From NCBI GenBank assembly GCA_964618905.1, contig CAZUDK010000001.1, forward strand, positions 92,614 to 156,613: a DNA stretch of 64,000 nt. The letters are read 5' to 3'. Below, piece after piece: positions 26,330 through 52,548 of the stretch; position 1 is the stretch's first letter, and each line of letters opens with the position of its first letter. Both the position numbers and the translations under genes were made by a program. The stretch comes from an uncultured Candidatus Saccharibacteria bacterium (GTDB taxonomy: Bacteria > Patescibacteriota > Minisyncoccia > Phycocordibacterales > Zambryskibacteraceae). A model generated the notes under the pieces. The model saw only the letters and a list, made by a program, of their open reading frames with translations, had not been told where the DNA came from and did not search any database.

Positions 26330-26848
26330 CTATTCGAGGATTCCATCCAAATTCACATCATAAAGTATCTCATCCTGAACAAGTCTGTAATCTATGATTT
26401 CCTTAGGATCGAACCAATGATTTATCTCAAAATCAGCTTCTTCTTCGTTGCCGGAAGCATGAATGAGATTCCTTACAGCCCTATCGTCGCCATCTGCTAA
26501 AGCATAAGAATCTAAAACATAATCCCCTCTTATTGTCCCTACATCAGAAGACAGAGGCTCTGTACTGCCTACAAGCTTTCTAACTAATTTAACTGCGCTA
26601 GCTCCTTCCCAAATCATAGCCACAACAGGCCCGCTGGTCATGTATTTAACCAGATGATCCTGTATTTTCTTATCTAGCTGGTTGTAGTGCTTTCTTACAT
26701 GATCTTCATCAACCGTAAGCATCTTCATACCGGCAAGCTTAAGCCCCACTCTTTCAAATCTGGAAATTATTTCTCCTATAAGACTTCTTTGCACGCAATC
26801 CGGCTTAAGAGCTACGAATGTTCTTTCTTTTTTCAAATGTTTTGTCAT
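26330..26848 (-). CDS. ndk: nucleoside diphosphate kinase
   Basis: ERTFVALKPDCVQRSLIGEIISRFE and NLIHASGN (active-site His) match NDK. Confidence 0.85.
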   Translation of the reverse strand: MTKHLKKERTFVALKPDCVQRSLIGEIISRFERVGLKLAGMKMLTVDEDHVRKHYNQLDKKIQDHLVKYMTSGPVVAMIWEGASAVKLVRKLVGSTEPLSSDVGTIRGDYVLDSYALADGDDRAVRNLIHASGNEEEADFEINHWFDPKEIIDYRLVQDEILYDVNLDGILE

Positions 26849-27615
26849 GAAGTTAGTATTATATTGCCTTTTTCAGTTATGGCAACAGTGTGTTCAAAAT
26901 GAGCGCTTCTTGAGCCATCCTTGGTGGATATAGTATATCCATCTTTGGAAAATTTAATACCAGGCTTGCCGACGTTCACCATGGGTTCTATAGCTATGAC
27001 CATTCCGGGCTCCAGAAGCACTCCTTCACCAGCCTTGCCAGTATTCGGCACAAAAGGTTCCTCATGAACCTCATATCCTACTCCATGACCAGCTAAATCT
27101 TCTGCAAGCGTAAAGCCATACTTCTTTACCACTGAAGAAATAGCTTCTCCTATATCTCCTATATGATTGCCTGGCTTTGCCGCAGAAATACCGGCTTCAA
27201 GAGCTTCTTTAGCAGACCTCAACAGCTGCACAGATTCATCATCTATAGCCCCAACTGGCACAGTAATAGCAGCGTCAGTAATAAGACCGTCGTGAACCAA
27301 TCCTAAGTCTAAAGAAACTATGTCGCCATCCCTTAAAATTCTCTCAACTTCATTAGGGATACCATGCACTATCTCATCATTTATGGAGACGCATAAAGCA
27401 GCTGGAAAAGGCCTGTAAGCGCCGGCAGGCGTATAACCCAAGAAAGCAGGTTCATCACCAACTTCGTTTATAAGTCTTTGTGACTCTTCTTCTAAGAAAA
27501 AGGTGCTCAGTCCGGGTCTGACCAAGCCATAAAGAGCTCTCAGAATCTCGGCATGCCTGGCTCCGCCAACTTTTAATGTTTCTATCTCTTCCTTTGTTTT
27601 AAGTCTTATGCTCAT
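26845..27615 (-). CDS. map: methionine aminopeptidase type I
   Basis: DIVSLDLGLVHDG, HGVGYEVHEEP and further metal-ligand motifs; conserved position after adk. Confidence 0.9.
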   Translation of the reverse strand: MSIRLKTKEEIETLKVGGARHAEILRALYGLVRPGLSTFFLEEESQRLINEVGDEPAFLGYTPAGAYRPFPAALCVSINDEIVHGIPNEVERILRDGDIVSLDLGLVHDGLITDAAITVPVGAIDDESVQLLRSAKEALEAGISAAKPGNHIGDIGEAISSVVKKYGFTLAEDLAGHGVGYEVHEEPFVPNTGKAGEGVLLEPGMVIAIEPMVNVGKPGIKFSKDGYTISTKDGSRSAHFEHTVAITEKGNIILTS

Positions 27616-28198
27616 ATGCTTCGATGATATCTTTGTGCACCTTATCTATATCTTGTTCTCCATTTATTTCTAAAAAGTTATAAAAGGGGTCAGCTTTAAA
27701 ATATTCAATGGCCGGCCACACATCCTGTTCAAACCAATTAAGACGCTTATTTATTTTAGATAGTGAACGATCATCTCTTCGTCCTCTGGCTAAAAGCCTC
27801 TCCTCCGCCCATTCTCTTCCGACATTAAGGTAAATTACACTTGGATTCTCTCTTTCATAAAACTTGAAAGCTGTCGAAAGTAGAACCGCTTCAGAGTGAG
27901 CCCTTGGAGCGCCATCGAACACCAGATGCATGTCCGGTTCAAGCTCATCAACCAACATACCAGCCCACATATAGCAGGCTAGAAAGTCCGGCTGGCGCGC
28001 ATCAGAATCATATACAGCCTTAGAGAGCTTTGATGAATAGCTTGAGCCTCTTATAAACTGTCTGAACCTATCTCCAGTTTCAATGTAAATAATCTGCTTA
28101 TTATCAAGGTCGCGATCCTTGATATATTTTTTAAAGAGCTCCGCTTGAGTTCCCTTGCCGCACCCTGAACGGCCTATGAATATGACTGTATGAAGCAT
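27599..28198 (-). CDS. adk: adenylate kinase-like P-loop NMP kinase
   Basis: Walker A GRSGCGKGTQ, TGDRFR, VFDGAPR and RGRRDD motifs; position after secY. Divergent, and lacks an obvious zinc LID. Confidence 0.7.
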   Translation of the reverse strand: MLHTVIFIGRSGCGKGTQAELFKKYIKDRDLDNKQIIYIETGDRFRQFIRGSSYSSKLSKAVYDSDARQPDFLACYMWAGMLVDELEPDMHLVFDGAPRAHSEAVLLSTAFKFYERENPSVIYLNVGREWAEERLLARGRRDDRSLSKINKRLNWFEQDVWPAIEYFKADPFYNFLEINGEQDIDKVHKDIIEAYEHKT

Positions 28199-28262
28199 AT
28201 TAGAATAAGGAATTACAAATTAAGAATAACATAATTCCCTACTCTTGCTCTGCCTCTATATC

Positions 28263-29534
28263 TTAGTACTCTCTTACGCTGGCTTGAGCGTCGATTCTTT
28301 TGACAATGTCTATAACGACAGATACGACAATCAACAGAGCTGTACCTCCTATAGCTAGGGATTGAATGCCGGTTATAGACCTCAGCAAGAGAGGCAGTAC
28401 TGCAATAAAACCGAGGAACAGAGCACCAAAGAAAGTCAGACGGGTAACAATCTTTGATATGTACTCCATAGTAGATTGTCCGGGACGAACTCCGGGTATG
28501 AAAGCTCCGCTCTTTTGGAGATTGGATGACACGGATTCAGGATCAAAAGTAACTGCCGTATAGAAATATGTAAATAGGAAAACAAAGAAGAAATAGAGCA
28601 AAGCATATACCCATTGGTTAGCAAGAACAGCTAAGATACTGCTTGAGATGCTTGCCACTGAAGTTAGTGATGATTTGGCCAAGAACTCCAAGATCATCTG
28701 AGGAAACAGCAAGATAGAAAGAGCAAAGATGATCGGAATAACGCCGGCCTGATTAACTTTGATAGGCAGATAAGTCTGAAGACCGCCATAAGATCTTCCT
28801 CCTCTAACCTGTTTTGCATAAGTGATTGGCACCGGCCTTTCGGCTTCATTAATAACCACCACTCCATAAGTTACAAGAAGAGCTGCTACGAAGGCTGCTG
28901 CATAAACCGGCACGAGCTGAGGTTGGAAAGTGAAAACAAGCTGTGAAATAGAGGTAGGCAAAGCAGAGATTATGCCGGCGAAAATTATCAAAGATACACC
29001 ATTACCTACGCCGAATTCGGAAATCAGCTCTCCGACCCACATCAGCAATATTGAGCCGGCTACAATAACCAAGACATCTATGGCCATATCACTAAGAGAC
29101 ATTGGAGGAAGGACGTTTTGTCCTTGCAGGAGTACTATAAAGGCATATCCCTGAATAACAGCTAAAGGCACTGTCAGAAGTCTTGAATACTGGGCAAAAG
29201 TACGCCTACCAGCATCTCCTTCCTCCTGATATAAAGCTTTGAGCTTAGGAGACATGATGGTCAGAAGTTGCATCACAATAGAGGCCGTTATATAAGGGCC
29301 TACTCCAAGCATGACTATAGAAAGATTAGACAGTCCGCCACCGGAGAAAATATTAAGAAGAGAGAGGAACTGGCTGCCAGAGAAAAGGCTCTGAAGTCTT
29401 AAAGTGTCTATGCCTGGTACAGGAATAGCGGCAAGCACCCTTGTTATTACAAGGAGTCCAAGAGTTATAAGAATGCGATTGCGCAGTGCGGTATCGCTGA
29501 ATATAAGACGCAGCCTTTGGATAAAATTACTCAT
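28263..29534 (-). CDS. secY: preprotein translocase subunit SecY
   Basis: 423 aa with 10 TM segments and conserved SecY N-terminal and plug regions. Confidence 0.95.
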   Translation of the reverse strand: MSNFIQRLRLIFSDTALRNRILITLGLLVITRVLAAIPVPGIDTLRLQSLFSGSQFLSLLNIFSGGGLSNLSIVMLGVGPYITASIVMQLLTIMSPKLKALYQEEGDAGRRTFAQYSRLLTVPLAVIQGYAFIVLLQGQNVLPPMSLSDMAIDVLVIVAGSILLMWVGELISEFGVGNGVSLIIFAGIISALPTSISQLVFTFQPQLVPVYAAAFVAALLVTYGVVVINEAERPVPITYAKQVRGGRSYGGLQTYLPIKVNQAGVIPIIFALSILLFPQMILEFLAKSSLTSVASISSSILAVLANQWVYALLYFFFVFLFTYFYTAVTFDPESVSSNLQKSGAFIPGVRPGQSTMEYISKIVTRLTFFGALFLGFIAVLPLLLRSITGIQSLAIGGTALLIVVSVVIDIVKRIDAQASVREY

Positions 29535-29814
29535 CTGACTCTTTGGAGCCTCTATTAGCTTTCTTATCTGCTAAATGCTTTTTAAGCGCAGCTCCTGAAA
29601 GCTTTGTGCGCCTTGATTTAAGAGAGTTGATTCCCCTACCTCGAAGCTTAGGCACTTTCTTGATGAGGTCTCGAAGCTCAGGTCGTTTTTTGCGTCCAGC
29701 TCTGGCGTTCTGACCTTTGGTTCCTCGGCCAGCAGTTTTGCCTCGCTTTCCCCCTCGTCCTACTTGCCTGGACTTGGTTCTTGATGTATTCGGTTTGAGA
29801 GTATGGAATTGCAT
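29527..29814 (-). CDS. rplO: 50S ribosomal protein L15 (short form, 95 aa)
   Basis: N-terminal 60 aa match L15 (HTLKP..RVGRGG..GKTAGRGTKGQNARAG); the C-terminal globular half is absent and secY starts 8 nt inside the ORF end. Confidence 0.75.
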   Translation of the reverse strand: MQFHTLKPNTSRTKSRQVGRGGKRGKTAGRGTKGQNARAGRKKRPELRDLIKKVPKLRGRGINSLKSRRTKLSGAALKKHLADKKANRGSKESDE

Positions 29815-32110: not shown

Positions 32111-32317
32111 TTAATCAGTGAGATTCTCTTCGAGCCTCCTTACCCTTTCCTCGAGGGTATGAAGCTTGTCGTCGTCCTCCTTATGATGGCGAAACCACCT
32201 CTTAAGCTGGGGCCAGATGAGTGCTCCGACAAGGATGTCGAAGATAAGGATGATGAATAGCTCGAATTGCCAATGAGCCAGGTCAGTGACAAGAGTCCAA
32301 AAGGTCTCGTGCTCCAT
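32111..32317 (-). CDS. small single-TM protein inserted between rplE and rpsN (possibly PspB-like coiled-coil tail)
   Basis: 68 aa; N-terminal TM helix then EERVRRLEENL; gene GC clearly above the neighbouring r-protein genes; preceded by a 190-bp non-coding gap. Confidence 0.4.
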   Translation of the reverse strand: MEHETFWTLVTDLAHWQFELFIILIFDILVGALIWPQLKRWFRHHKEDDDKLHTLEERVRRLEENLTD

Positions 32318-35171: not shown

Positions 35172-35585
35172 TTATTTAACAGTTTGAGCTTCTTGGTTAT
35201 TATTTTCTTCTGTCTTTACAGTCTTTTTGCTTCTGCTTTTAGCAGGCTTCGGAGCTGCTTCTTCCAGAGTAACACTAATATGGCTTGTTCTTTTCCTTAT
35301 AGGATGAGCCATACCGTGTGAGCGAGGCTGACGCCTGTAAAGAGTTCTGCCTTCGTCTACTTTGATTTCTTTAATCACTAAGCTGTCTGCCGGCATGGAC
35401 ATGTTTTTAGCATTAGCCACTGCGGAAGAAATGAGCTTGCGTATCGGACCTGCTGCTCTTTTGGTTGTGAAAGCGAGCATAGACAATGCATCATTAACTG
35501 ACTTACCTCTTACCAGGTCAGCAACAAGGCGAACCTTTCTAGGAGATTGCCTGTAAGTATTGAGCTGTGCCTTTGCTTCTGCCAT
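35172..35585 (-). CDS. rplV: 50S ribosomal protein L22
   Basis: Sequence and position; acidic C-terminal extension. Confidence 0.9.
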   Translation of the reverse strand: MAEAKAQLNTYRQSPRKVRLVADLVRGKSVNDALSMLAFTTKRAAGPIRKLISSAVANAKNMSMPADSLVIKEIKVDEGRTLYRRQPRSHGMAHPIRKRTSHISVTLEEAAPKPAKSRSKKTVKTEENNNQEAQTVK

Positions 35586-35607
35586 GTTACTTGATTTCTA
35601 TACCAGA

Positions 35608-35949
35608 CTATTTCTTAGAATCTGTTGATGCTTTAGCAGCTCTAGCAGCTGAAATCTCAGCTTCTTTCTTCTTCTGCTCAAGCTCTTTCTGCATCTTACC
35701 ACCGTGCTTTATGAATTTGCGGGTGGGAGAAAACTCGCCCAAACGGTGGCCAACCATATCTTCAGTAACAAAAACTTCTATATGATCCTTGCCATTGTGA
35801 ACACCAAAAGTAAATCCAAGCATTTCTGGAGAAATTTGGCATGCCCTCGACCATGTCTTAATAACTCCGGCTGTCTGCGGAGTTTTACTCTCGATTTTCT
35901 TTAAAATTCGAGGATCGACATATGGACCTTTTCTTGATGAACGAGTCAT
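35608..35949 (-). CDS. rpsS: 30S ribosomal protein S19
   Basis: [14 protein letters not shown]...[23 protein letters not shown]; Lys-rich C-terminal extension. Confidence 0.95.
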
Positions 35950-36084
35950 TAATATGCGTATTTAGAAAACAAAAAGCGTCAAGCGCTTGTGCGAGATATA
36001 GTATAGAAAATAAGGTTTTAAGTCAAATAGGACTTTGGTATAATTTTATGCAGGTATTAAATTTATTATTTTCATTTAAGCATT

Positions 36085-37053
36085 ATGATTCCACTAGCAA
36101 TAGCATTATTAGTAGCAGTAGGCGGCGGCGCCACAGTGGCAGTCTCAGACAGCGCACAGCCAGGAGACTTGCTCTTTCCCGTAGACCAGGCGGTAGAAAA
36201 AATACGCATATCTACAGCCATCGGGGAAGATAAAAAGGATGAACTGAGGGTAAAATTCGCCACAGAGCGCGTCAAAGAATTCGAAGATATTCTTGGAGAG
36301 GAAGCAGAAGAGAAAGACATAGAGGAAACTGAGGATACAGAAGAGTCTGAAGCGGAAAATGAAGCCGAAGAGCCTGCTGAAGACGAAAGTAATGTCCGCA
36401 TTGAGTCTTCCCTTGAAAATGCATTTGCGGCTCTCTCTGAAGTATCAGCCAAGCTTGAAGCCAAAGGCAACATAGAGGCCCAGCAAGCAGTTGAAGTTGC
36501 TATGGAAAGATTGCTCTCGAACGTAGACGATCTTCCGGCTCAAGTAAAAGCGCGCGTCGAAGTGGAAGACGAGGGCAATGAATCAGAAGTGAGGCTTAAG
36601 GCCAAATCAGCCGACGGCGGGAAAATTATAGAATTCAGGCATGAGATAGATGATGACGGCGATGAAAAGCTTGAACTCAGAGAAAATGGAGTACGCACCA
36701 GGATAGAGAATAAAGACGGAGAGATACGCATCCGTACGCAGGAAGATAACAGCGGATCCGGAAAAGCTGATGAGAATGAGATCAAGGATCAGGACGAAGA
36801 TGTGGAGGCAGACGAAGCGGAAATAGAGGATGAAGATAGGGATGACGAGCAAGGAGAAGTAAGCTTAATCGAAGTAGAGGCAGAAGCGGAAGATGGTGAA
36901 ACTGAAGTGAGAATAAAGCTTGAAGGCCAAGAAGACGATCAATATGTAAGCGAAGCAACTACGCGAGAAGCCGTGGCTTCCGAAGTGGCGCAACGCCTTA
37001 ACCTTCCTATAGAGGAGATAGACGCGGTGCTAGACTTTGAAGTCAAGAATTAA
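36085..37053 (+). CDS. secreted, highly acidic protein (DUF5667-like N-terminus PGDLLFPVDQAVEKIR)
   Basis: Signal peptide/TM, then ~300 aa of extreme D/E content; internal antisense ORFs are low-complexity artefacts. Confidence 0.5.
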   Translation: MIPLAIALLVAVGGGATVAVSDSAQPGDLLFPVDQAVEKIRISTAIGEDKKDELRVKFATERVKEFEDILGEEAEEKDIEETEDTEESEAENEAEEPAEDESNVRIESSLENAFAALSEVSAKLEAKGNIEAQQAVEVAMERLLSNVDDLPAQVKARVEVEDEGNESEVRLKAKSADGGKIIEFRHEIDDDGDEKLELRENGVRTRIENKDGEIRIRTQEDNSGSGKADENEIKDQDEDVEADEAEIEDEDRDDEQGEVSLIEVEAEAEDGETEVRIKLEGQEDDQYVSEATTREAVASEVAQRLNLPIEEIDAVLDFEVKN

Positions 37054-37075
37054 CACTTCTCTATAAGATTTCGCA

Positions 37076-37118
37076 GGATAAAGGGCCCAGCAGCTATTAA
37101 CTGCTGGGCCCTTTATCC
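37076..37118. terminator. long perfect hairpin (18-bp stem), likely bidirectional terminator
   Basis: GGATAAAGGGCCCAGCAG-CTATTAA-CTGCTGGGCCCTTTATCC. Confidence 0.5.
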
Positions 37119-37349
37119 TCTGCTCGCGCCGCCTTTCGGCTCGCTCGCTCGCCTGCTCCTCCTGAGCAGTCATTTTGCCCTCCTGGGCTAGAAGTGAAAT
37201 AACTAGGTAGGCAAATGCCTATCCTCTTCATTTTTATAATATATTATTAATTTTGTCAAGCATTACTTTAGAAAATTCAGATGCGCAAAAGGCCCCAGTA
37301 GGGGCCTTCTGCAAAGAACAGCTAAGGTATTATCTAGCTGAAATACCTA

Positions 37350-38048
37350 TTATCCGTTGTGATGCTTGCCGCTCATTTCTCCACGGAGCTTCTCAATGAA
37401 GCGCCCTGCTGCTTCCTGACCGCCAAGTCCAAATGACAATCCAAGTGCTAGAGAGAGTGCGATAACCACTCCGGTAAAGAGAGTCTGGCTAAATGCCGCT
37501 GCAATTCCGAGCTGTGAGAGAGCAACCAGGATAGCAAATATCCAGATAGCCCACTTAGCTACAGAACCTGCGAAGTGAGCAGAGCTTACGTCAGCTGTCT
37601 TTGCAGCTGCCACAACTACTCGCTCAGTAACATCGCCAATTACGCCAGCTACCAGAAGAACTAGTGCTGCCACGAGAACTCGAGGAAGATAAGCCAATAC
37701 AACTTCCTGAAGGAATAGATTGACCTGGCTAAGGCCGAGTACATCAAAAGCTGCAATAAGGAATACAACTATGATGAACCACTTCACAATACCGCCGACA
37801 AAAGCTCCTGAGTCTAAGCGAATACCGCCTCGGCGAAGAAATGACTCAAATCCTGCTCTACGAAGAGCGTCATCGACCTTTACAGAACGGAATACTTGCC
37901 AGATGGCTCTACCAAAGAGAGCACCTATCAGCCATCCGAGAATGACGATAATGATGGCTACGACAAGGTTCGGGACGAAATTAACGACTCCAACCCACAG
38001 GTTTTGGAATGAAAGAGTCAGTACGTCTCCCCAAGTGTTTAATAACAT
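37350..38048 (-). CDS. membrane protein with duplicated conserved-TM-helix repeats (MscS-N-terminal-like)
   Basis: 232 aa, about six TM helices; two internally similar halves; terminator hairpin AAGGCCCC-AGTA-GGGGCCTT at 37281..37310. Confidence 0.45.
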   Translation of the reverse strand: MLLNTWGDVLTLSFQNLWVGVVNFVPNLVVAIIIVILGWLIGALFGRAIWQVFRSVKVDDALRRAGFESFLRRGGIRLDSGAFVGGIVKWFIIVVFLIAAFDVLGLSQVNLFLQEVVLAYLPRVLVAALVLLVAGVIGDVTERVVVAAAKTADVSSAHFAGSVAKWAIWIFAILVALSQLGIAAAFSQTLFTGVVIALSLALGLSFGLGGQEAAGRFIEKLRGEMSGKHHNG

Positions 38049-38191
38049 ATATTCTTGACTGAAATCGTGCTAAAAGCACTTAACTTCTAATTACCACTCT
38101 TAAAGGGGTATAAAATCATTATACACCAACGAAATTTACTCAAAGGCAAGCGTTTCTAAGGCTGTGGATATCCACTTTTATTTACAGGATG

Positions 38192-38749
38192 TCAAATACC
38201 TAATTTATTTAGTATCTTTTTATGAGAAAAATCGAGAATATCTCTTATAAGCTTGTCATATAAGCCAAGTCTGTATTTAAAATCATCAGTTTCAAAAGCT
38301 GCATATCGCAGTTCTTTGCCAAGCTCTGCTTCTATCGAAGATATGGCCGAAACTAAGGCTGTCTGCTTTATATTGTCTCCAGCTATGAGTAGATCTACCC
38401 TGCTCTCAAGGTCATGAATAAATACTCCGGCTATAACTACAAGTTTGATATTGCCGGCCTTGCTTAGCTTTTTTATGATTTCCTGCTCGCTTACAGGGGC
38501 AACGTCAATAAGAAAGCTCTCAAGAGCAGAAAGATTTGGGTAGGTGCTGTTTAGGGCATAACCCTTACTGGTCTTCCTTATAAGCTTGCCTTTGGATAGA
38601 GACCTGAGCTCTTTTCTGACTGTATTAGGGCGTTCCTTGGACCTTCTGGAAACTTCTTTTGGGCTGAAAGACTGACCTGGGTTGAATACAAAGAGACGGA
38701 TAATCCTGGCCTTGCTGTTCGTGCCGAATATATGGGAAGAAGATGGCAT
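38192..38749 (-). CDS. hypothetical protein with basic N-terminal wHTH-like region
   Basis: 185 aa ORF; no family assignable. Confidence 0.4.
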   Translation of the reverse strand: MPSSSHIFGTNSKARIIRLFVFNPGQSFSPKEVSRRSKERPNTVRKELRSLSKGKLIRKTSKGYALNSTYPNLSALESFLIDVAPVSEQEIIKKLSKAGNIKLVVIAGVFIHDLESRVDLLIAGDNIKQTALVSAISSIEAELGKELRYAAFETDDFKYRLGLYDKLIRDILDFSHKKILNKLGI

Positions 38750-38793
38750 GGGCGTATTCTATCTGGACAGGAGAGAAGTTACAACCCAGCTTT

Positions 38794-38911
38794 AAAACAA
38801 AGAAAAAACAACAATTTCCTGTGCATGCAGTAATTTTCTGCTGAAAATTCTGCTCTGCTCACCACGCCGGGCTCCGCAAGGCACCATAAATTGTTGTTTT
38901 TTCTTTGTTTT
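38794..38911 (-). repeat. structured 3'-UTR element B: 23-bp perfect inverted arms enclosing a conserved GC-rich core (homolog of 24195..24286)
   Basis: Arms AAAACAAAGAAAAAACAACAATT / AATTGTTGTTTTTTCTTTGTTTT. The core on the minus strand reads CCTTGCG...GAGCAGAGCAG-AATTTTCAGCAGAAAATTAC; it lies in the 3' UTR of rplJ-rplL. Confidence 0.75.
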
Positions 38912-39046
38912 ACTTGAAGGTAACTTTGTCACAGATAATTTCCTCGCCGTAGCTCGGAAATTTCCGCGACTCCGCCTCGCGCCCGACTACTGCTGTAGTC
39001 GGACTGAGTGCGCTCCGGCCGTAAGACCTACCTAAATAAGCTCCGC

Positions 39047-39526
39047 TTATTTAAAGGTGGCCTTACCTCCTGCTTCCTCAATCTTAGCCTTGAGTTCTTC
39101 AGCTTCTTCTTTCTTCACATCAGACTTAAGCATAGATGGAGCAGCATCAACCATATCCTTTGCCTCCTTCAATCCAAGTCCGAGAGCTTCCTTGACCACC
39201 TTGATAACGGCAATCTTGTTAGCACCTGCGTCAGAAAGCTCTATATTTACCGTAGAACCTCCTTCTTCAGCTTCACCGCCGGCAGCAGGACCTGCAACCG
39301 CTACAGCTGTAGCTGAAACGCCGAATTTGTTTTCGAAGACCTTAACTAGCTCGTTGAGATCAAGCACTGACATGTTCTCGATTTCTTCAACAATCTTCTT
39401 GAACTTCTCAGGGACTTCTACTTCTTTAGTCTCTTCTTTAACTTCTTCGCTAGCAGGCGCAGCCTGAGTTTCTTCTTTCACTTCCTCTGCCGGAGCCTGT
39501 GCTTCTGTATTTGTTTCTTCTGCCAT
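39047..39526 (-). CDS. rplL: 50S ribosomal protein L7/L12 with ~40-aa acidic N-terminal extension
   Basis: Dimerisation domain [30 protein letters not shown], Ala/Gly hinge, C-terminal domain [24 protein letters not shown]. Confidence 0.9.
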
Positions 39527-39547
39527 AGTATTAATTTCAATTAGTAA

Positions 39548-40036
39548 TTACGATCGTGATTTAGCAATTTCGCTGAGAGCGACCGCTGTTCTCTGTATCG
39601 GAGAATTAATGATGTTGACAAATTTGCCACGCAAAACGTCAAGGCTTGGAATGAGTGCAATTTCCTCAGCTTCTGGCTTGGCGATATACTTGCCTTCAAA
39701 GACTGCTCCGAGGATATTCACTCCTCCGGCAAATTTCTTTTGAAAGGCATGCACCTCGCGCAAAGATGCTACAGGATCTTCACTCCATGCGAGAGCTAGC
39801 TCTCCCTCGAGTAGCGGCTTTTCTCCGTCAAATTTCTCGGCATCAAGAACCCTGTTAACAAGGTTCTTCTTGGCAACTTTGTAGGAAACACTCTGCTCTT
39901 TAAGAGCTTTGCGCATTTCTGTAACATCGCCGACTGAAAGTCCTTTGAAATTGACGAAAGCGAGCGACTTGGCGCGCTTTAGAGCCTCTGTCAAATTTTC
40001 AACTATTTCCTCCTTTTTCTGTCTGGTAATAGCCAT
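39548..40036 (-). CDS. rplJ: 50S ribosomal protein L10
   Basis: MAITRQKKEEIVENLTEALKRAKSLAFVNFKGLSV. Confidence 0.9.
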   Translation of the reverse strand: MAITRQKKEEIVENLTEALKRAKSLAFVNFKGLSVGDVTEMRKALKEQSVSYKVAKKNLVNRVLDAEKFDGEKPLLEGELALAWSEDPVASLREVHAFQKKFAGGVNILGAVFEGKYIAKPEAEEIALIPSLDVLRGKFVNIINSPIQRTAVALSEIAKSRS

Positions 40037-40162
40037 ACAATAAAAAATCGACCTAATAATATAAGGCCGAAAACGGAGATTTGTCTCGAGAGGACTTCTG
40101 GGTATTCCCTGCCCCTTGTCTTTGACCTTACGAGAGTTACTTTACAGGAATAAAACTATTTT
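40037..40162 (-). promoter_or_regulatory. possible L10 (rplJ) autoregulatory leader
   Basis: About 125-nt untranslated leader between the upstream terminator and the rplJ start; identification by position only, no motif verified. Confidence 0.25.
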
Positions 40163-40165
40163 GCA

Positions 40166-40190
40166 AGAAAAAGCCCCGATATGTCGGGGC
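40166..40190 (-). terminator. intrinsic terminator after the Cys/His-rich ORF
   Basis: GCCCCGA-TATG-TCGGGGC followed by a U-run on the minus strand. Confidence 0.7.
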
Positions 40191-40511
40191 TTACGCAACC
40201 TTGCTGAGCATTGCGCTCCTTTCTTCGAAACTCAACTCATTCCATTGCCTTCCATTATAAAGAGGAGTGCTCAAACACATTCTACCTAAGACAAAGCAGT
40301 CACAAGAAAACCATTCATGATGCTTGCCTAACATCTTTGCAAGCTCGCACTCAGAAGAGTGGCCGAAAAATCCATGCGAGCTTGCTGGGCCGCCCTTGGA
40401 TACAAATGGGTCTAATCCGTTACATACTGGGCACCTTCCATAAGCAGACCATTGCAGTTTCTCAAGCATAGCGAGAGCTGCCGTAAGTGCGGCTCGAGTT
40501 TCCGCAAGCAT
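40191..40511 (-). CDS. small Cys/His-rich (putative zinc-binding) protein, GC-rich
   Basis: 106 aa with CPVC and several His/Cys; inserted between rplB and rplJ. Confidence 0.4.
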   Translation of the reverse strand: MLAETRAALTAALAMLEKLQWSAYGRCPVCNGLDPFVSKGGPASSHGFFGHSSECELAKMLGKHHEWFSCDCFVLGRMCLSTPLYNGRQWNELSFEERSAMLSKVA

Positions 40512-40589
40512 ATATCCTCCTGTTTGTGGTCAGTTCTAATAGTAATTATACATATGCACAACAAAAAATCCCTCTCGGGGATTTTTTAC

Positions 40590-41429
40590 TTACTTCTTTC
40601 CTACCTTTCTTCTCTTCACGATAAACTTGTTTGAATACTTTTTAGAACGGCGGGATTTCTGACCTTTGCCTGTAGGCTTGCCGTAGATAGAGATTGCTCT
40701 TCGGCGACCTCGGCCCTGGCGGCCTTCACCACCTCCATGCGGATGGTCTACCGGGTTCATAGCTGTACCTCGTACAGTTGGACGAATACCGAGCCAACGA
40801 GACCTGCCCGCCTTACCGAGTTTGATCAAGCGGTTCTCGGAATTTGATACTTCGCCTACAGTTGCCCAAGCGTTCTCAGGAACTTTCCTCATCTCGCTCG
40901 AAGGCATCTTAACTGTTACATAACCTCCATCCTTGGCCAAAACTTCTGCATAGTTGCCTGCTGAGCGAGCGATCTTGGCACCGCCTTTGGATTTAAGCTC
41001 TATGTTGTAAACCATAGTACCCACTGTGATGTTCTTTAGAGGCAAGCGATTGCCGGCAACGATAGGAGCATTTTCGGAGACAACGTAAGTGTCACCAACT
41101 CTAGCTTCTTTATGCAGTAGAACATATCGCCTCTCACCGTCTTTGTAAGCAACCAGACCGATGAATCCTGAGCGATTTGGATCGTATTCTATGGTTTTAA
41201 CTGTGAAAGGAATGTCTAGCTTGTTGTATGAAAAATCTACATCCCTATGAAGCCTCTTGTGTCCGCCTCCTTTGTGCCTAGTAGTAATGCGACCGAGATT
41301 ATTCCTGCCGCTTCCTCTCCTGAATCCCTTAGTCAGAGACTTCAAAGGCTTTCCAGCAGTAATAGTCTTCCTGTATTCAACAAGAGCTGTATTTCTTTTT
41401 GATGAAGCTGTCGGTTTAAATCTTTTCAT
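40590..41429 (-). CDS. rplB: 50S ribosomal protein L2
   Basis: RHKGGGHKRLHR and VKTIEYDPNRS motifs. Confidence 0.95.
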   Translation of the reverse strand: MKRFKPTASSKRNTALVEYRKTITAGKPLKSLTKGFRRGSGRNNLGRITTRHKGGGHKRLHRDVDFSYNKLDIPFTVKTIEYDPNRSGFIGLVAYKDGERRYVLLHKEARVGDTYVVSENAPIVAGNRLPLKNITVGTMVYNIELKSKGGAKIARSAGNYAEVLAKDGGYVTVKMPSSEMRKVPENAWATVGEVSNSENRLIKLGKAGRSRWLGIRPTVRGTAMNPVDHPHGGGEGRQGRGRRRAISIYGKPTGKGQKSRRSKKYSNKFIVKRRKVGKK

Positions 41430-41450
41430 TTTATTTATGCAAATTTCGGG

Positions 41451-41744
41451 CTATATTATATCTATTTTGTCGCCCTTCTTTAGATATACATAAGCCTTTT
41501 TGCCTCCTCCTTTAGTTCCATGTTTGCCGCGTACAAAAACTCTTTTCCTAGGTATAGCAACAAGATTTACCTTAACAGGAACAACATTGTAAGCATTCTT
41601 CACAGAAGCAGCTACGCTTGCCCTGGTTGCACTAGGAGTAACTTCAAAGACATACGCATTATCTTTCTCTGCGGAGATTGCTGCCTTTTCTGTTATATAA
41701 GGCTTAAGCAGCACTGTATTAGGTTTTATATTCAAATTTTGCAT
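41451..41744 (-). CDS. rplW: 50S ribosomal protein L23
   Basis: Size and position; KPYITEKA motif. Confidence 0.85.
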   Translation of the reverse strand: MQNLNIKPNTVLLKPYITEKAAISAEKDNAYVFEVTPSATRASVAASVKNAYNVVPVKVNLVAIPRKRVFVRGKHGTKGGGKKAYVYLKKGDKIDII

Positions 41745-45015: not shown

Positions 45016-45543
45016 CTAGGCGACCCCCCGAATGTTCTCCGGGACAATCATCTGGACATTCTCCGCTCGCATACCTCGCGGGGTCTTCTTAACATCGAAG
45101 GAGACCCTTTGACCCTTCTCGAGCTCCTCGATGTAATCAGGAAGAGCTGTCTGGTGCACGAACACGTCGGTGAGCTTCGGATCATCCCGCTTAATGAAGC
45201 CGAATCCCCGCCCGTTGCTGAACCATGCCACCGTTCCGAAGACTCCGATCTCGATGATCTCGGCCTTCGGATAAGGCGTTTCACCAGCAGACTCTGCGGC
45301 AGCCGGTGGAAATGAGGCAGCTGCGCGTCTCCCGTGACGACCATGGCGAGCTTCCAATTCCCTGAGCTGTTCCACGTCACCCCTGTCGCGCCGCCTCGAT
45401 TTCTTTTTGCCCACAGTCCGAGCTCCTTGAAAGGGTTTAAGAAAACAGAACAAACTCCGGCCGATACCATAACACTCAGATGAGCTAAAATCAATGACCA
45501 ACGGGAAAACAGTTCGGATAGACAACACAGAAGCGCCCCGCAT
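45016..45543 (-). CDS. cold-shock-domain protein with Arg-rich N-terminal extension (GC-rich gene between fusA and tuf)
   Basis: C-terminal GTVAWFSNGRGFGFIKRDDPKLTDVFVHQTAL...GQRVSFDV is a CspA-type cold-shock domain. The N-terminal ~100 aa are Arg/Ala-rich and low-complexity; the start codon is uncertain. Confidence 0.6.
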   Translation of the reverse strand: MRGASVLSIRTVFPLVIDFSSSECYGIGRSLFCFLKPFQGARTVGKKKSRRRDRGDVEQLRELEARHGRHGRRAAASFPPAAAESAGETPYPKAEIIEIGVFGTVAWFSNGRGFGFIKRDDPKLTDVFVHQTALPDYIEELEKGQRVSFDVKKTPRGMRAENVQMIVPENIRGVA

Positions 45544-45586: not shown

Positions 45587-47749
45587 TTATTTCCCTCCCG
45601 TCCTTGCTTCTATGATTTCCTGCTCAACATTCTTAGGCACCACAGCATAGTGGTCGAATTCCATTGTTGCCGAACCTCGGCCTTCTGTCATCGAACGCAG
45701 GTTTGTTACATATCCGAACATTTCCGACAGCGGCACGAATGCCCTAACAACCTTAAGATCTCCTCTCTCTTCCATGGCCTCTATCTGACCTCTCTTACTG
45801 GACAAGTTGCCTGTTACATCACCCATGAACTTATCAGGGACAACTACTTCCACTTTCATAATAGGCTCGAGGAGCACAGGTTTTGCCTTCTTGGCTGCTT
45901 CTTGGAATGCCTGGCTGGCAGCTATCTTGTATGCAATCTCAGACGAGTCCACATCGTGATAAGAACCAAAGAGAAGTTCCGCAGAAATGCCTGTCATCTT
46001 GTATCCGGCAAGCACACCTCTATCCATAGCTTCTTTGATACCCTTTTCTACTGCAGGGATAAACTCCTGAGGAATAACACCTCCTTTGATCGAATCAATG
46101 AACTCGAAACCTTCTTCTCGATGCACGTTCTTCGGCACCTTTTCATCTGGATCATAGTCAGGAAGAGGTTTGATCTTGATCTTAACGTGTCCGTACTGAC
46201 CCTTACCTCCTGTCTGCTTAATGTATTTATTCTCGACTTCTGCTTCGCCTTGGATGGTTTCTTTATATGATACCTGAGGCTTGCCAACATTGGCTTCAAC
46301 AGCGAATTCTCGCTTGAGTCTGTCAACGATAATCTCCAAGTGGAGCTCACCCATACCCATAATGACAGTCTCTCCGGTCTCTGAATCTGTTTTGATCTTA
46401 AATGTTGGGTCTTCATCTGAAAGACGCTTGAGAGCCATACCCATTTTCTCTTGGTCAGCCTTGGTCTTAGGCTCAATACGAAGCGAGATAACCGGCTCAG
46501 GGAATGTGATTTGGTCAAGAATTATAGGATGATTCTCATCACAGAAAGTATGCGAGGTCTTAGCATCCTTGAGACCAACCGCAGCTGCAATCTCTCCGGC
46601 AAAAACCTTCTTAACTTCTTCTCTCTTATCTGCCTGCAGACGCACGATTCTTCCGAGACGCTCTTTCTCATCAAGAGTTGAGTTGTATATATAGGTACCG
46701 GACTCTACAGTACCGGAATAAACACGGAAGAAAGTGAGCTGACCGACAAACGGGTCAGACTGCAATTTAAATGCAAGAGCTGAGAAAGGTTCGCTGTCTG
46801 AAGCATGTCTTTCTATCTCCTCGCCTGTCCTTGGGTCGATGCCTTTTACAGGAGGCACATCAAGAGGACTCGGCAAAAAGTCCACCACCGCGTCGAGAAC
46901 CAGCTGCACGCCCTTGTTCTTGAGGGCGGAACCGGCAAACACGGGGAAAACATTATTAGCTATAACCGCCTTTCTGAGCGTTGCTTTAAGGTCTTCATAG
47001 CCTATTTCCTTGCCGTCGAGGTACTGATTCATCAGAGCTTCATCGTTTTCAACGATCTTTTCCACCAATTCAGCGCGATATTTTTCAACATCCGCCTTCA
47101 TGTTCTCCGGAATCTCCTTTTCCACTATCTTGTCGCCCATAGGGCCTTCAAAGTAGTAAGCCTTCATGCGCAAAAGATGCACCAAACCTTCATGCTTGTC
47201 TTCTTCGCCGATTGGCAAGGTCATTCTGACTGCATTCTTGGACAGTCGGTTTAAAATGCTCTGGAAAGAGCGCTCAAAAGATGCTCCGGTCCTGTCTATC
47301 TTGTTTATGAAGCAGATTCTTGGAACATGAGCTTCTTCAGCATATCTCCAGTTGGTTTCCGACTGAGGCTCCACTCCGGCAACTCCGTCAAAGACCACCA
47401 TGGCGCCGTCGAGCACCCTAAGAGAGCGCTTAACCTCAACTGTAAAGTCTATGTGACCTGGAGTGTCGATAATATTGAAACGATATTTATTCTCTTTCTT
47501 CAGCCTCTCGCCTTCTGGAATGTTTGTGGGTCCCCAAAAACATGTTACAGCAGCGGCTGTGATAGTAATGCCGCGCTCTTTCTCCTGCTCCATCCAGTCG
47601 GTGGTAGCTTCACCTTCATGCACCTCACCGATCTTGTGCTGAGAACCGGTATAGTAAAGCACGCGTTCAGACGTGGTGGTTTTACCCGCATCCACGTGGG
47701 CGACAATTCCAAAGTTTCTAATTCTTTCTAACGGATAGTCTCTCTCCAT
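45587..47749 (-). CDS. fusA: elongation factor G
   Basis: AHVDAGKTTTSERVLYYTG...; 720 aa. Confidence 0.98.
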   Translation of the reverse strand: MERDYPLERIRNFGIVAHVDAGKTTTSERVLYYTGSQHKIGEVHEGEATTDWMEQEKERGITITAAAVTCFWGPTNIPEGERLKKENKYRFNIIDTPGHIDFTVEVKRSLRVLDGAMVVFDGVAGVEPQSETNWRYAEEAHVPRICFINKIDRTGASFERSFQSILNRLSKNAVRMTLPIGEEDKHEGLVHLLRMKAYYFEGPMGDKIVEKEIPENMKADVEKYRAELVEKIVENDEALMNQYLDGKEIGYEDLKATLRKAVIANNVFPVFAGSALKNKGVQLVLDAVVDFLPSPLDVPPVKGIDPRTGEEIERHASDSEPFSALAFKLQSDPFVGQLTFFRVYSGTVESGTYIYNSTLDEKERLGRIVRLQADKREEVKKVFAGEIAAAVGLKDAKTSHTFCDENHPIILDQITFPEPVISLRIEPKTKADQEKMGMALKRLSDEDPTFKIKTDSETGETVIMGMGELHLEIIVDRLKREFAVEANVGKPQVSYKETIQGEAEVENKYIKQTGGKGQYGHVKIKIKPLPDYDPDEKVPKNVHREEGFEFIDSIKGGVIPQEFIPAVEKGIKEAMDRGVLAGYKMTGISAELLFGSYHDVDSSEIAYKIAASQAFQEAAKKAKPVLLEPIMKVEVVVPDKFMGDVTGNLSSKRGQIEAMEERGDLKVVRAFVPLSEMFGYVTNLRSMTEGRGSATMEFDHYAVVPKNVEQEIIEARTGGK

Positions 47750-49158: not shown

Positions 49159-49581
49159 TTAAGCCTTAGGCTTTTTAGCACCATACTGGGAGCGGCCTTT
49201 CTTGCGCTTTTCTACGCCTGCAGCATCGAGCTTGCCTCTTACTACTGTATATCGGATACCAACATCCTTTACTCTACCGCCTCTAAGTAGCACCACCGAG
49301 TGCTCCTGCAAGTTGTGTCCCATGCCTGGAATATAACCTGTAACTTCCATACCGTTGGTCAAGCGGACTCTGGCGATCTTTCGGATAGCTGAGTTAGGCT
49401 TCTTAGGAGTCTTGGTCGTAACCTTTGTGGCTACGCCTCTTTTGAATGGAGAATTATAGAATACCGGCCTGTTCTTCAAAGTATTGAAACCGCGCGTCAA
49501 AGCAATCGCCTTGGACTTCTTAGCGACTTTCTTTCTCTTTTTCCTAACAAGCTGATTGATTGTGGACATACACCCTAACAA
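49159..49581 (-). CDS. rpsL: 30S ribosomal protein S12
   Basis: Sequence and position at the head of the str operon. Confidence 0.95.
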
Positions 49582-49702: not shown

Positions 49703-50323
49703 TTACATCAAAGGCATCCCTGAAATAAGCTCAAAGAAGTAAAAGACTATAGGAGCCACAAGCTGCCATACGAGAAAAATGAAAAGAATAACCAGAATTA
49801 GCCCGTATCTCTCGAAGAAATACCTCATTTTATACAGTTTCTCAGGGAAGAGAGCGAATAAGAGCTTTGAACCATCAAGCGGCGGAATCGGCATGAGGTT
49901 GAATACAGCCAGCAATATATTAATGAATATCACCAGCGAAGTTATTTCTATAAAAGCAGAACTGGCATATCCTCCTGAAACCGAGAGTCTCAAAATAATG
50001 CCGAAAATAAGAGCGATTGAAATGTTGGAGGCTGGGCCGGCTAAAGCCACAAGCGGTTCAGACCACCTGCCGGGTCGAAGATTGTGAGGATTATAAGGCA
50101 CAGGCTTGGCCCAGCCAAAGATGAATCCACCCATTACATAAGAGAGAGCAGGCACTAGAAAAGAGCCTACTGGGTCCAAATGGTTCAGAGGATTTAAGGT
50201 CAAACGGCCTTCATACTTGGCTGTCGGATCGCCGAGAGAGTTGGCAGCAAAGCCGTGCGAGACTTCGTGCACCACCACCGACATGATAAGAATGGCTATT
50301 TGAAAGATGAAATCTACTTGCAT
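49703..50323 (-). CDS. site-2 protease family (M50) zinc metalloprotease
   Basis: HEVSHG (HExxH) within a TM helix; polytopic. Confidence 0.7.
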   Translation of the reverse strand: MQVDFIFQIAILIMSVVVHEVSHGFAANSLGDPTAKYEGRLTLNPLNHLDPVGSFLVPALSYVMGGFIFGWAKPVPYNPHNLRPGRWSEPLVALAGPASNISIALIFGIILRLSVSGGYASSAFIEITSLVIFINILLAVFNLMPIPPLDGSKLLFALFPEKLYKMRYFFERYGLILVILFIFLVWQLVAPIVFYFFELISGMPLM

Positions 50324-50383
50324 TACAAGAATTATAACAAATATCGAGAAGAACGCCGCGCATTCGCGCGGCGTTCAGACTGC

Positions 50384-50854
50384 CTATAAGTGGTAAGAGG
50401 GATGAATTCCATCACAATAGTACTCATCAGATGGTTCTACCACCTTTTTCTGAGAATAGCTCTCGGCGGACCATCTATACCCGTAATCATCCGATATGAG
50501 AGGCAGAGCAATCTCCTTTCTTTCTCCGTCCGGATAAATAATTGCATATCTGAGCGGATAACCTTTTGCACTGTAGGCTGACTCCACCATGCAGGGGCGC
50601 TCTCTACTGCCGCAAGGGAATCCAAGCTCGCTGCAGTTTGCACATGGGCGAAATCCTGCATATCCAGTACATGGAAGCAGATCCCATGCCCGATCATAGG
50701 CTTCCTGAAGATTAAGAGACGGAGAGTACCTCCATTCTCCTAAAAGAAGATTGATTCTATCAACCCACCAATCCGGCTTCAGAGCAAAATGTTCAGGCAA
50801 AGCATGCATCATCTGCCTCCTTGTAAGAATGGTAAAAGCAATATCTGGACCCAT
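50384..50854 (-). CDS. hypothetical Cys-rich protein, GC-rich
   Basis: 156 aa ORF with 8 Cys; no family recognised. Confidence 0.35.
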   Translation of the reverse strand: MGPDIAFTILTRRQMMHALPEHFALKPDWWVDRINLLLGEWRYSPSLNLQEAYDRAWDLLPCTGYAGFRPCANCSELGFPCGSRERPCMVESAYSAKGYPLRYAIIYPDGERKEIALPLISDDYGYRWSAESYSQKKVVEPSDEYYCDGIHPSYHL

Positions 50855-50896
50855 TCTGAGTCTTGCTTGTAATTAAATCAAGTTTAGGTTAGTCTA

Positions 50897-51151
50897 TTGA
50901 ACATTATGGCTAAGATTTGCCCGGTAACAAAAAAGACTTCACAGGTCGGAGGCGGCTATTCCAACAGGACTCGTGCCACCAAGTTCAACCCGACCGGCAC
51001 TAAGCGCAGGTATCCAAACCTGCAGAAGAAACGTGTCTATGTACCGGAGCTCAAGAAGACAATAACTCTTACCCTCTCGGCTCGAGGTATCAAGACGATC
51101 AACAAGCGTGGCGCTTACAAAACACTCAAAAAAGCAGGAGTCATAAAATAA
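50897..51151 (+). CDS. rpmB: 50S ribosomal protein L28
   Basis: MAKICPVTKKTSQVGGGYSNRTRATKFNP... Confidence 0.85.
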   Translation: MNIMAKICPVTKKTSQVGGGYSNRTRATKFNPTGTKRRYPNLQKKRVYVPELKKTITLTLSARGIKTINKRGAYKTLKKAGVIK

Positions 51152-51254
51152 GCGCTAGAAACGGCTTCTGGCGCTTGTGTTTTCATATTGACAAATCTTA
51201 TTAGGAGGTGTATAGTAATAGATAGAAGCTCTATTACGCCTACCTTTTCACGTC

Positions 51255-51551
51255 ATGGAGGCTGAGATGGAGAGACATTCAATCTTCTGGGCAGTATCAT
51301 TTATCGGGACGTTGTTTGTCGCTGTTCTCATGCTCACTCTCGGCTTGTTTCTCTGGAACATGGGAGGGCTGTGGCTCTTGCCTTCAGTCATTCTCTCATG
51401 CGCAGGGACAGTGCTCGGTGCACTGTCCCTCAATCCCCTTCTGGCTATCCGGCAGGGGATAAAGAAAGACAGAGAAATTCTTGCTCAGCAGGAGAGAGCT
51501 GAGGAAGAATTTCTTCTTCCTCCCAGAGAGAGAATCCACGTTGTGGCCTAA
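51255..51551 (+). CDS. hypothetical membrane protein
   Basis: 98 aa with two or three TM helices; followed by a strong terminator. Confidence 0.4.
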   Translation: MEAEMERHSIFWAVSFIGTLFVAVLMLTLGLFLWNMGGLWLLPSVILSCAGTVLGALSLNPLLAIRQGIKKDREILAQQERAEEEFLLPPRERIHVVA

Positions 51552-51556
51552 GGCCT

Positions 51557-51590
51557 GCGCGGTCCGACGTTTCGGACCGCGCTTTTTATT
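51557..51590 (+). terminator. intrinsic terminator
   Basis: GCGCGGTCCGA-CGTT-TCGGACCGCGC followed by TTTTTATTT. Confidence 0.85.
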
Positions 51591-52449: not shown

Positions 52450-52548
52450 CGTCTAATTATACAGGTGATATAATGCAAATTACTTATCCTGTTAGGGTCT
52501 AATAGGATTTCAACTAGCATGAAATTTTATTAATTAAATTTTAAAAAC

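Follow-up and report, generated by a model that had tools for sequence, protein, structure and literature searches.

The 64-kb window analysed here (64,000 nucleotides (nt) of contig CAZUDK010000001.1, assembly GCA_964618905.1) contains an S10 ribosomal protein operon that is interrupted between rplB (L2) and rpsS (S19) by 4.6 kb of other genes, at positions 35950-40590. Four of these genes, rplJ (L10), rplL (L7/L12), a gene for a winged helix-turn-helix (wHTH) protein and a gene for a PF05552 membrane protein, occupy the same place in a whole clade of related genomes. Only the other two, a Cys/His-rich open reading frame (ORF) and a gene for an acidic protein, are specific to this genome. We consider it probable that the interruption is made up of an old cassette shared by the lineage and of recent, genome-specific genes at its junctions.

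Few bacterial gene orders are as conserved as that of the str-S10-spc cluster, which also provides the backbone for phylogenies of uncultured candidate-phyla bacteria. In the model that we propose, the first layer would be a cassette composed of a promoter-like site, an L10 leader, rplJ, rplL, the wHTH gene, a second promoter-like site, the PF05552 gene and a terminator-like hairpin. In deeper relatives this cassette lies shortly before the 23S rRNA gene. It would have moved once, in the common ancestor of one clade that includes Zambryskibacteria, to the position between L2 and S19, with a sister group carrying it between fusA and tuf. The second layer would consist of the two cassette junctions, which are hot spots for accessory genes, here an orphan Cys/His gene and an antisense DUF5667 gene.

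Gene order and its distribution among relatives

Unless stated otherwise, the genes of the region lie on the minus strand; ORFs were taken from a listing and assigned by Pfam and NCBIfam scans. On that strand the order is S10-L3-L4-L23-L2, then the Cys/His ORF, rplJ, rplL, the wHTH gene and the PF05552 gene, then S19-L22-S3, and the acidic DUF5667 gene sits on the plus strand between the membrane gene and S19. The contiguity of the operon is broken by six genes, and the ORF listing and the family hits agree with the earlier note that some 4.6 kb interrupt the adjacency of L2 and S19. The eleven genes for S10, L3, L4, L23, L2, S19, L22, S3, L16, L29 and S17 are otherwise on one strand and in canonical order. 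Upstream of S10 are S12 (49159-49581), S7, EF-G (45587-47749), a cold-shock-domain gene and EF-Tu; past S19 come L22, S3, L16, L29, S17, L14, L24, L5, a 68-aa ORF, S14 and S8, and after these L6, L18, S5, a short L15-like ORF, SecY, Adk and Map. The genes at and within the interruption are as follows.

40590..41429, minus strand: rplB (L2), final gene of the upstream S10 block (TIGR01171, 352 bits; PF00181; PF03947)
40191..40511, minus strand: 106-aa Cys/His ORF with 6 Cys and 4 His and no family match
39548..40036, minus strand: rplJ (L10), 162 aa (PF00466; NF000955, 128 bits)
39047..39526, minus strand: rplL (L7/L12), 159 aa (PF16320 at residues 43-86; PF00542 at residues 94-159)
38192..38749, minus strand: 185-aa wHTH protein, an N-terminal winged helix-turn-helix followed by a C-terminal alpha/beta domain without a family
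37350..38048, minus strand: 232-aa membrane protein, the cassette's final gene (PF05552 in two stretches)
36085..37053, plus strand: 322-aa acidic DUF5667 protein (PF18915, 32 bits) with a hydrophobic N-terminus
35608..35949, minus strand: rpsS (S19), 113 aa, opening the block S19-L22-S3-L16-L29-S17-L14-L24-L5 (TIGR01050, 118 bits)

Only 21 nt separate rplJ from rplL. The pair was said to be present without rplK, rplA or rpoB, and in the window this holds: E. coli queries for rplK, rplA and nusG had no tblastn match in the window or in 51 related loci taken with 10 kb on either side, and rpoB would need a longer ORF than any in the window, where none exceeds 735 aa. The descriptions of single genes were likewise accurate, including the position of the L12 domains, the two PF05552 repeats and the hydrophobic N-terminus of the acidic plus-strand protein. 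The wider cluster is also loosened. After secY-adk-map there are, as far as the window was scanned (26330-29814), ndk and an RNase J-like gene rather than the alpha operon, and upstream of rpsL (49703-53151) there are genes for an M50 peptidase and L28, ComEC fragments and a superoxide dismutase rather than rpoBC, which makes the interruption less surprising.

The relatives were collected by scanning the L10 protein against one genome per species, which yielded 51 species-level loci, and synteny was determined by placing the window's proteins on these loci by tblastn. All 51 belong to uncultured Parcubacteria/Paceibacteria, several of them named Candidatus Zambryskibacteria. The genes rplJ and rplL and those for the wHTH and membrane proteins were consecutive in every related locus that reached far enough. 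We observed this set in three genomic contexts: (a) between L2 and S19, in the window and in 28 related loci, from many independent studies, whose sequence takes in both of these genes; (b) between EF-G (fusA) and EF-Tu (tuf), in two loci (L044 and L050 in our numbering); and (c) away from ribosomal protein genes. Of the loci in context (c), 17 have a 23S rRNA gene downstream in the same orientation, its start, located by Rfam hit and blastn, lying about 0.4-1.2 kb past the membrane gene. These 23S-linked loci are L026-L029, L032, L034, L036-L039, L041-L043, L047-L049 and L051 (for example, L027:13545-14199), and many of their contigs terminate within the rRNA. The genes inserted along with rplJ-rplL had been described as unrelated, a description at odds with the way in which the wHTH and membrane genes trail rplJ-rplL in all three contexts.

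In a midpoint-rooted neighbour-joining tree of the L10, wHTH and membrane proteins, the loci with the cassette between L2 and S19 formed one clade, which was sister to the fusA|tuf type, and both were nested among the 23S-linked type. The simplest reading of this tree is a single relocation to the L2|S19 site in the ancestor of clade (a), with the 23S-linked state presumably ancestral. The earlier note had treated the interruption as a local rearrangement. Since the same order is found throughout the clade, in 28 other species-representative loci that also retain the eleven-gene S10 order, it is a trait of the lineage rather than a local event. Searches of the literature on Zambryskibacteria, Parcubacteria and Patescibacteria returned no paper describing this gene order.

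The nearest relative, GCA_040879525.1, whose membrane protein is 95% identical, has the order L2, a bPH_2 gene, L10, L12, wHTH gene, membrane gene, S19. It has neither the Cys/His ORF nor the acidic gene, and its junction between the membrane gene and S19 is empty. The shortest gaps in clade (a) are 114 nt between L2 and L10 and about 130-190 nt between the membrane gene and S19, so that the minimal insert is the four-gene cassette by itself; L2 and S19 are at least about 2.6 kb apart in every member of the clade.

The L10 leader and the predicted transcription units

The earlier inventory of the insert was correct for the genes and overlooked the L10 leader and the promoter- and terminator-like sites, which predict separate units. 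The features between the genes are listed here.

40563..40587, both strands: hairpin AAAAAATCCCCGAGAGGGATTTTTT right after the L2 stop, terminator-like on either strand as read from the sequence
40171..40192, minus strand: intrinsic-terminator-like hairpin closing the Cys/His gene (9 pairs, 6 of them G-C, and a T-run)
40139..40166, minus strand: promoter-like TTGCAA-16-TAAAGT before the L10 leader, called by consensus and conserved position
40060..40131, minus strand: L10 (rplJ) leader RNA, identified by covariation, RNAalifold and the covariance model R1
38793..38912, no strand: inverted repeat with 32-nt arms in the rplL-wHTH spacer, 91% complementary, with 56 nt between the arms
38118-38125, minus strand: extended -10-like TGTATAAT before the membrane gene, a conserved motif
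38049..38125, minus strand: conserved 5' untranslated region (UTR) of the membrane gene, ~70 nt, with two hairpins
37319-37340, minus strand: terminator-like hairpin past the membrane gene
37075-37119, no strand: palindrome with 22-nt arms between the convergent genes
35998-36026, minus strand: S19 promoter-like TTGACT-17-TACTAT, called by consensus and conservation
35974-35988, minus strand: S19 5' hairpin and T-run with a conserved stem

A motif shared 5' of rplJ (51 loci) reads (A/G)UAAGG(U/C)C AAAGA C A NNNGG, a variable loop, CCNNN C G AGAC, another variable stretch and then GGCCUUAU. The RNA folds into helix P1 (UAAGGUC/GGCCUUA in the window), an internal loop AAAGA / GAGAC, and helix P2, which contains a conserved A-C mismatch. 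In an alignment of 32 sequences, 96.6% of the cells in the 8 pairs of P1 and 6 pairs of P2 were paired; 41 cells had changed on both sides, and two-sided changes occurred in 4/6 of the P2 pairs. None of 500 column shuffles reached the observed covariation score (0/500), and when the partner was slid by one to three columns, pairing fell to 30-55%. RNAalifold recovered the same P1 and P2 helices. R1, the covariance model built from the alignment, scored 69.8 bits in the window at 40060-40131. There, as in 46 related loci, of which 15 were outside the seed, it had a single match, which invariably lay directly 5' of rplJ.

At the gathering threshold, Rfam models detected only two tRNAs and the transfer-messenger RNA (tmRNA) in the window and only 23S fragments, with no L10_leader, in eight related loci; permissive E-values gave nothing credible in 35500-41000. 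A search confined to 181 nt gave a full-length, sub-threshold match of RF00557 L10_leader to 40032-40143 (15.3 vs 44 bits, E 1.6). The leader resembles helix 42 of 23S rRNA. E. coli 23S positions 1039-1056 and 1104-1119 read AAGGCCCAGACAGCCAGG...CUGGUCGAGUCGGCC, with the A-C mismatch included, and the leader reads AAGGUCAAAGACAAGGGG...CCUCUCGAGAC...GGCC. The invariant AAAGA / CGAG loop and unpaired C of the leader match helix 42 of E. coli by sequence. R1 gave no match on E. coli 23S, as expected because helices 43-44 make a 58-nt insertion there.

In E. coli it has been shown experimentally that surplus L10-L12 shuts down rplJL. The leader of the window would fold as a copy of the L10 site in 23S helix 42, and surplus L10-L12 complex would bind it and shut off rplJL. 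We treat the leader as a compact, divergent member of the L10(L12)4-binding leader class because the published L10(L12)4 site is a kink-turn with a bulged C, an rRNA mimic that is widespread in bacteria (PMC3616713). Autoregulation of rplJL by attenuation has been demonstrated in B. subtilis (PMC4538822), and by analogy with these systems rplJL is probably autoregulated through the leader here as well. The cassette could then have been tolerated within the S10 operon without upsetting the balance of ribosomal proteins, as it would bring its own promoter and feedback element. In compact forms of the leader, the rplJ start codon lies 8-12 nt past P1; in many loci, the window among them, a small hairpin and T-run follow P1 and compete for its 3' strand. 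Control might thus act through attenuation or through occlusion of translation initiation.

Taken together, the conserved promoter-like and terminator-like sites predict four transcription units. The promoter-like sequence TTGACA/TTGCAt, about 17 nt, TAnAnT was found at the same position before the leader in nearly all loci. A motif of the TGTATAAT type precedes the membrane gene in 25/45 loci, mostly of the L2|S19 clade, and the conserved 5' UTR of that gene contains the hairpins UACCCC..GGUA (UACCCCUUUUAGAGUGGUA) and GUGC..GCAC (alignment A4), with no match in Rfam. Before rpsS, TTGACx-17-TAnnAT was present at a distance of 16-62 nt in 23/25 loci, both fusA|tuf loci included. A 5' hairpin and T-run followed 8-10 nt past the predicted promoter in 20/21 loci, its stem being formed by three unrelated sequences (AAGCGC/GCGCTT, GTCCCGC/GCGGGAT and AGCTC/GAGCT), and this element is a candidate attenuator or leader of the S19-L22-S3 unit. 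The upstream S10 block would be closed by the hairpin after L2, and S19 would be served by the conserved promoter-like site. In the two genomes of type (b), other genes separate L2 from S19 and the S19 promoter-like site is kept. Its presence without the cassette argues that the L2|S19 point was probably already a boundary between transcription units before the cassette arrived.

Several points weigh against an old, self-regulating cassette as we have described it. The polarity of the move depends on the midpoint rooting of a three-protein neighbour-joining tree, and the comparison covered the 64-kb window and the related loci. Promoter and terminator calls were consensus matches, and the region held 9 promoter-like sites vs 9.4 in shuffled sequence; as there is no excess, it is their conserved position and sequence in different genomes that support promoters at the cassette and S19, and from these we infer their use. 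The leader is nearer to helix 42 of E. coli than to that of the lineage's own 23S, with which it has AGACA and GAG in common and which differs at two positions (UAAGAG vs CGAGAC in the leader). Finally, an alternative partner for the 3' strand of P1 is available in many loci, the window among them: a downstream AGGUCG that precedes the T-run. If this competing hairpin is a terminator, stabilisation of P1 would favour read-through, which is the opposite of simple negative feedback.

Partner genes, junction genes and assembly support

The linkage of the wHTH and membrane genes to rplJ-rplL in three contexts hints at a shared role. One alternative holds that both work with the L10-L12 stalk or in the production of ribosomes, be it, for instance, as a regulator that acts on the transcription of rRNA or ribosomal protein genes or as a membrane partner, and that selection maintains the four-gene linkage and keeps the genes near translation genes. 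The three contexts in which the four genes are united (23S rRNA, str operon and S10 operon) are all related to translation, and in most clade members the rplL-wHTH spacer is only ~15 nt. The wHTH family is well conserved and restricted to this lineage, with 854 detectable members, all unnamed. Over 4,200 homologues of the PF05552 protein were found, the top 120 at 82-100% identity. Its mean identity in clade (a), 82%, is comparable to that of S10, S3 and L16 and well above those of L10 (61%), L3 (63%) and L4 (66%), and it exceeds most of the ribosomal proteins encoded beside it in conservation. However, neither protein is tied to the ribosome by homology, the membrane gene has a promoter-like site and 5' UTR of its own, the C-terminal domain of the wHTH protein matched no known fold, and inheritance as an operon can preserve gene order without shared function. 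We regard such a functional link as unlikely.

It also seems rather improbable that rplJ-rplL, the wHTH protein and the PF05552 protein are a functional module of Parcubacteria and that the S19 5' hairpin and T-run is a new attenuator. In that event the wHTH protein would control the module or neighbouring units for rRNA and ribosomal proteins, the membrane protein would serve as an essential partner coupled to the capacity for translation, and selection would hold the four genes together across the 23S rRNA, str and S10 positions.

The two partner proteins were also examined by family and structure searches. Only the N-terminal half of the wHTH protein matches known folds, those of winged helix-turn-helix proteins, and the Pfam HTH_20 match fell below threshold (18 vs a cutoff of 27 bits). 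Among 35 homologues the best E-value for a helix-turn-helix family was 4e-5, and no family was common to all. The C-terminal 90 residues had no match in the Protein Data Bank (PDB), and a structure model of this half alone was poor (predicted local distance difference test, pLDDT, 52). Other similarities were set aside: a similarity of the C-terminal domain to the N-terminus of RlmH was not significant in the PDB profile search (E 0.68), nor was a similarity of the protein to eS25, and a minimal nucleotidyltransferase suggested by a GxF...RVDxL motif had no second acidic residue and nothing in its support. Pfam and NCBIfam scans of the 232-aa membrane protein found PF05552 and no MscS channel (beta) domain. 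Models of the channel family scored below their cutoffs (NF033912, 68.7 vs 100 bits; PRK10334, 16 vs 321 bits), so the name of mechanosensitive channel is not justified.

The L12 protein opens with an acidic, low-complexity extension, from residue 1 to about 38 (39413-39526), that is 35% Asp+Glu, so that ~40 residues stand before the dimerisation domain (PF16320 at 43-86). The rplL ORF begins 21 nt past the L10 stop with a conserved MxEET start, and since a conserved VEVPAKF segment lies upstream of the first internal Met, translation must start further upstream than that Met. Between the MxEET and VEVPAKF motifs, relatives carry from 0 to about 50 aa of acidic, lysine-rich, low-complexity sequence; the long extensions are found in about ten loci scattered over the tree, and gene callers disagree on the extension in one and the same relative (115 aa vs 186 aa). 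The acidic extension of ~40 aa noted earlier is real as an open frame, and from its sequence it is a variable tract rather than a defined domain. Downstream of rplL, the spacer to the wHTH gene is 297 nt in the window, and the inverted-repeat sequence at 38793-38912 occurs once in the window. Compared with the ~15 nt of most clade relatives, this is an insertion specific to this genome, perhaps a small inserted element or a processing hairpin.

Gaps of more than 300 nt were confined to a small number of positions in the cluster, all other ribosomal gene pairs being tight. They were found at S7|EF-G in 5/18 loci, EF-G|EF-Tu in 16/25, L2|L10 in 19/28, membrane gene|S19 in 7/23, L5|S14 in 8/17 and L12|wHTH in 2/27. 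The genes at these expanded junctions vary from genome to genome, and only bPH_2 has a Pfam hit. By reading of translations, not checked against Pfam, the others include MazF/PemK toxins with AbrB-type partners, NYN-like and L,D-transpeptidase-like proteins, a reverse transcriptase and an IS200-like transposase. The L2|S19 gap of a sister genome (L050:16942-20324) contains genes whose sequences resemble those of an IS200-like transposase, of a reverse transcriptase and of a four-helix-bundle protein, again not Pfam-checked, and this transposase-like family is also found near the cassette in L037 and L038.

In the window, the Cys/His ORF had no homologue but itself among 5.8 billion proteins, and neither the 51 related loci nor the nearest relative contain it. 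TATAAT and AGGAGG stand in front of it, and of the 74 window ORFs with 90 aa or more it alone has this strong Shine-Dalgarno sequence; elsewhere in the genome such sequences do not appear to be used. Its orphan status and foreign-looking signals suggest that it is a recent foreign arrival. The acidic DUF5667 protein is 31% Asp+Glu with an isoelectric point of 4.07, and tblastn at E <= 1e-5 found no counterpart of its gene in the related loci.

These two genes raise the possibility that the whole 4.6 kb is one recent foreign block, such as a genomic island or mobile element with an extra rplJL. The signals of the Cys/His ORF (AGGAGG, TATAAT and a strong terminator) and its lack of homologues would fit this, as would the antisense orientation of the acidic gene, its absence from relatives, and the transposase-, reverse transcriptase- and toxin-antitoxin-like genes read at the relatives' junctions. 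However, these points concern two junction genes only, whereas the core cassette occupies the same site clade-wide and its loci are grouped by the tree. In addition, Pfam scans of 35950-40590 found no integrase or transposase gene, no flanking direct repeats were found, and the L10 scan gave one locus per genome record. The inserted genes have a guanine-plus-cytosine (GC) content of 41-48% vs 44% for the window and are not deviant in composition. We consider a single foreign block very unlikely, and prefer an old cassette with recent genes at its junctions.

The gene order was also compared with Logan contigs, which are independent per-run assemblies, from runs SRR11843815, SRR11843827, SRR11843829 and SRR11843830, found through an exact-protein look-up. 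Logan contigs were 100% identical to window positions 35427-38191, 38831-40491, 39826-41623, 40008-41225 and 39667-40865. The match at 39826-41623 covers the end of L23, L2, the Cys/His ORF and the start of L10; that at 38831-40491 covers the Cys/His ORF, L10 and L12; and that at 35427-38191 covers the end of L22, S19, the acidic gene and the membrane gene. The earlier note had asked about misassembly at ~35950 and ~40590. Both junctions are reproduced at 100% in the contigs of the four runs, independently assembled, and to the extent that assemblies can tell the gene order is therefore not an assembly error. Contigs of metagenome-assembled genomes (MAGs) can be chimeric, and the GC skew flips locally at 36-37 kb, an effect of the plus-strand gene, but there is next to no chance that a chimeric contig placed an rplJL fragment in the S10 operon through false joins near 35950 and 40590, given that the L23-L2-Cys/His-L10 and L22-S19-acidic-membrane joins are reproduced in assemblies from four different runs, that 28 independent MAGs from unrelated projects have the same core order, and that the GC content of the inserted genes resembles that of the window.

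Some further observations concern neighbouring parts of the window. The cold-shock-domain gene between fusA and tuf (45016-45543) is an ORF of up to 175 aa with ~100 residues before the domain; it sits in a locally GC-rich kilobase (52%), and in relatives accessory genes are often inserted at EF-G|EF-Tu. Between L5 and S14 there is a 68-aa hydrophobic ORF (32111-32317). The L5|S14 inserts differ in 8/17 relatives (e.g. L005, L012, L016, L018, L030 and L035), some of them resembling RelE/ParE-type toxin pairs, and this position is another break point in the spc block. The 113-aa S19 has a Lys/Glu-rich C-terminal tail extending ~25 residues past the Pfam domain, a length that recurs in most clade members. 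Farther away, smpB (19544-19987) adjoins the tmRNA gene (20333-20733, tag AKSTFASVVSPYFTANDFQFAYARA), and a tRNA-Ile with anticodon TAT (UAU) is encoded at 15953-16027. A UAU tRNA-Ile is uncommon in bacteria, in which AUA is usually read by a lysidine-modified CAU tRNA.

Meaning and comparison with known systems

A whole clade with rplJL and two non-ribosomal genes inside the str-S10-spc cluster indicates that the cluster can be divided without loss into units that are predicted to be separately controlled. Moved genes that retain a promoter and an rRNA-mimic feedback leader, as predicted here, illustrate how such splitting can work. The arrangement provides a simple synteny marker for a clade of Parcubacteria. 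It also draws attention to two uncharacterised proteins as candidates for a role linked to translation, and one of the two surpasses most ribosomal proteins in conservation. For annotators and binning tools, the 16-protein ribosomal block is non-contiguous in these genomes, and the junction genes are strain-specific cargo.

The partner proteins have partial counterparts elsewhere. The wHTH protein shares the winged helix-turn-helix fold of regulators of the ArsR/MarR/IclR type, but its HTH_20 match is sub-threshold and its last 90 residues are without a PDB counterpart. The membrane protein is like MscS channels in its two copies of the PF05552 transmembrane helix and its partial NF033912 match, and some sources label its homologues 'small-conductance mechanosensitive channel'; it differs in being a 232-aa protein without a match to the channel or beta-domain.

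Like the rplKAJL-rpoBC operon of E. coli and B. subtilis, the cassette has rplL directly after rplJ. The cassette differs from that operon in lacking rplK, rplA and nusG within 10 kb, and rpoB in the window, in having the wHTH and membrane genes downstream, and in occupying three non-canonical positions. Its leader is like the L10/beta operon leader RF00557 in being a structured RNA 5' of rplJ with a kink-turn-like loop and an unpaired C (PMC3616713), but is shorter, about 60-70 nt in compact forms, and reaches 15.3 of the 44 bits required by that model. The hairpin and T-run that follow the leader in many loci recall the Firmicute attenuator (PMC4538822).

The canonical S10 operon has the order rpsJ-rplC-rplD-rplW-rplB-rpsS-rplV-rpsC-rplP-rpmC-rpsQ and belongs to the conserved str-S10-spc cluster (PMC8046335). 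The operon of the window differs in the 4.6-kb distance between L2 and S19 and in the separate promoter-like site and 5' hairpin of S19. In the surrounding cluster, rpsL is not preceded by rpoBC, and secY-adk-map is not followed by the alpha-operon genes in the part of the window scanned. All eleven genes nevertheless keep their order and orientation, with tuf before them and the spc genes after. We take the arrangement to be a variant of known operon organisation, in which a ribosomal gene pair would have moved as a self-regulating module together with two strongly conserved, uncharacterised partners.

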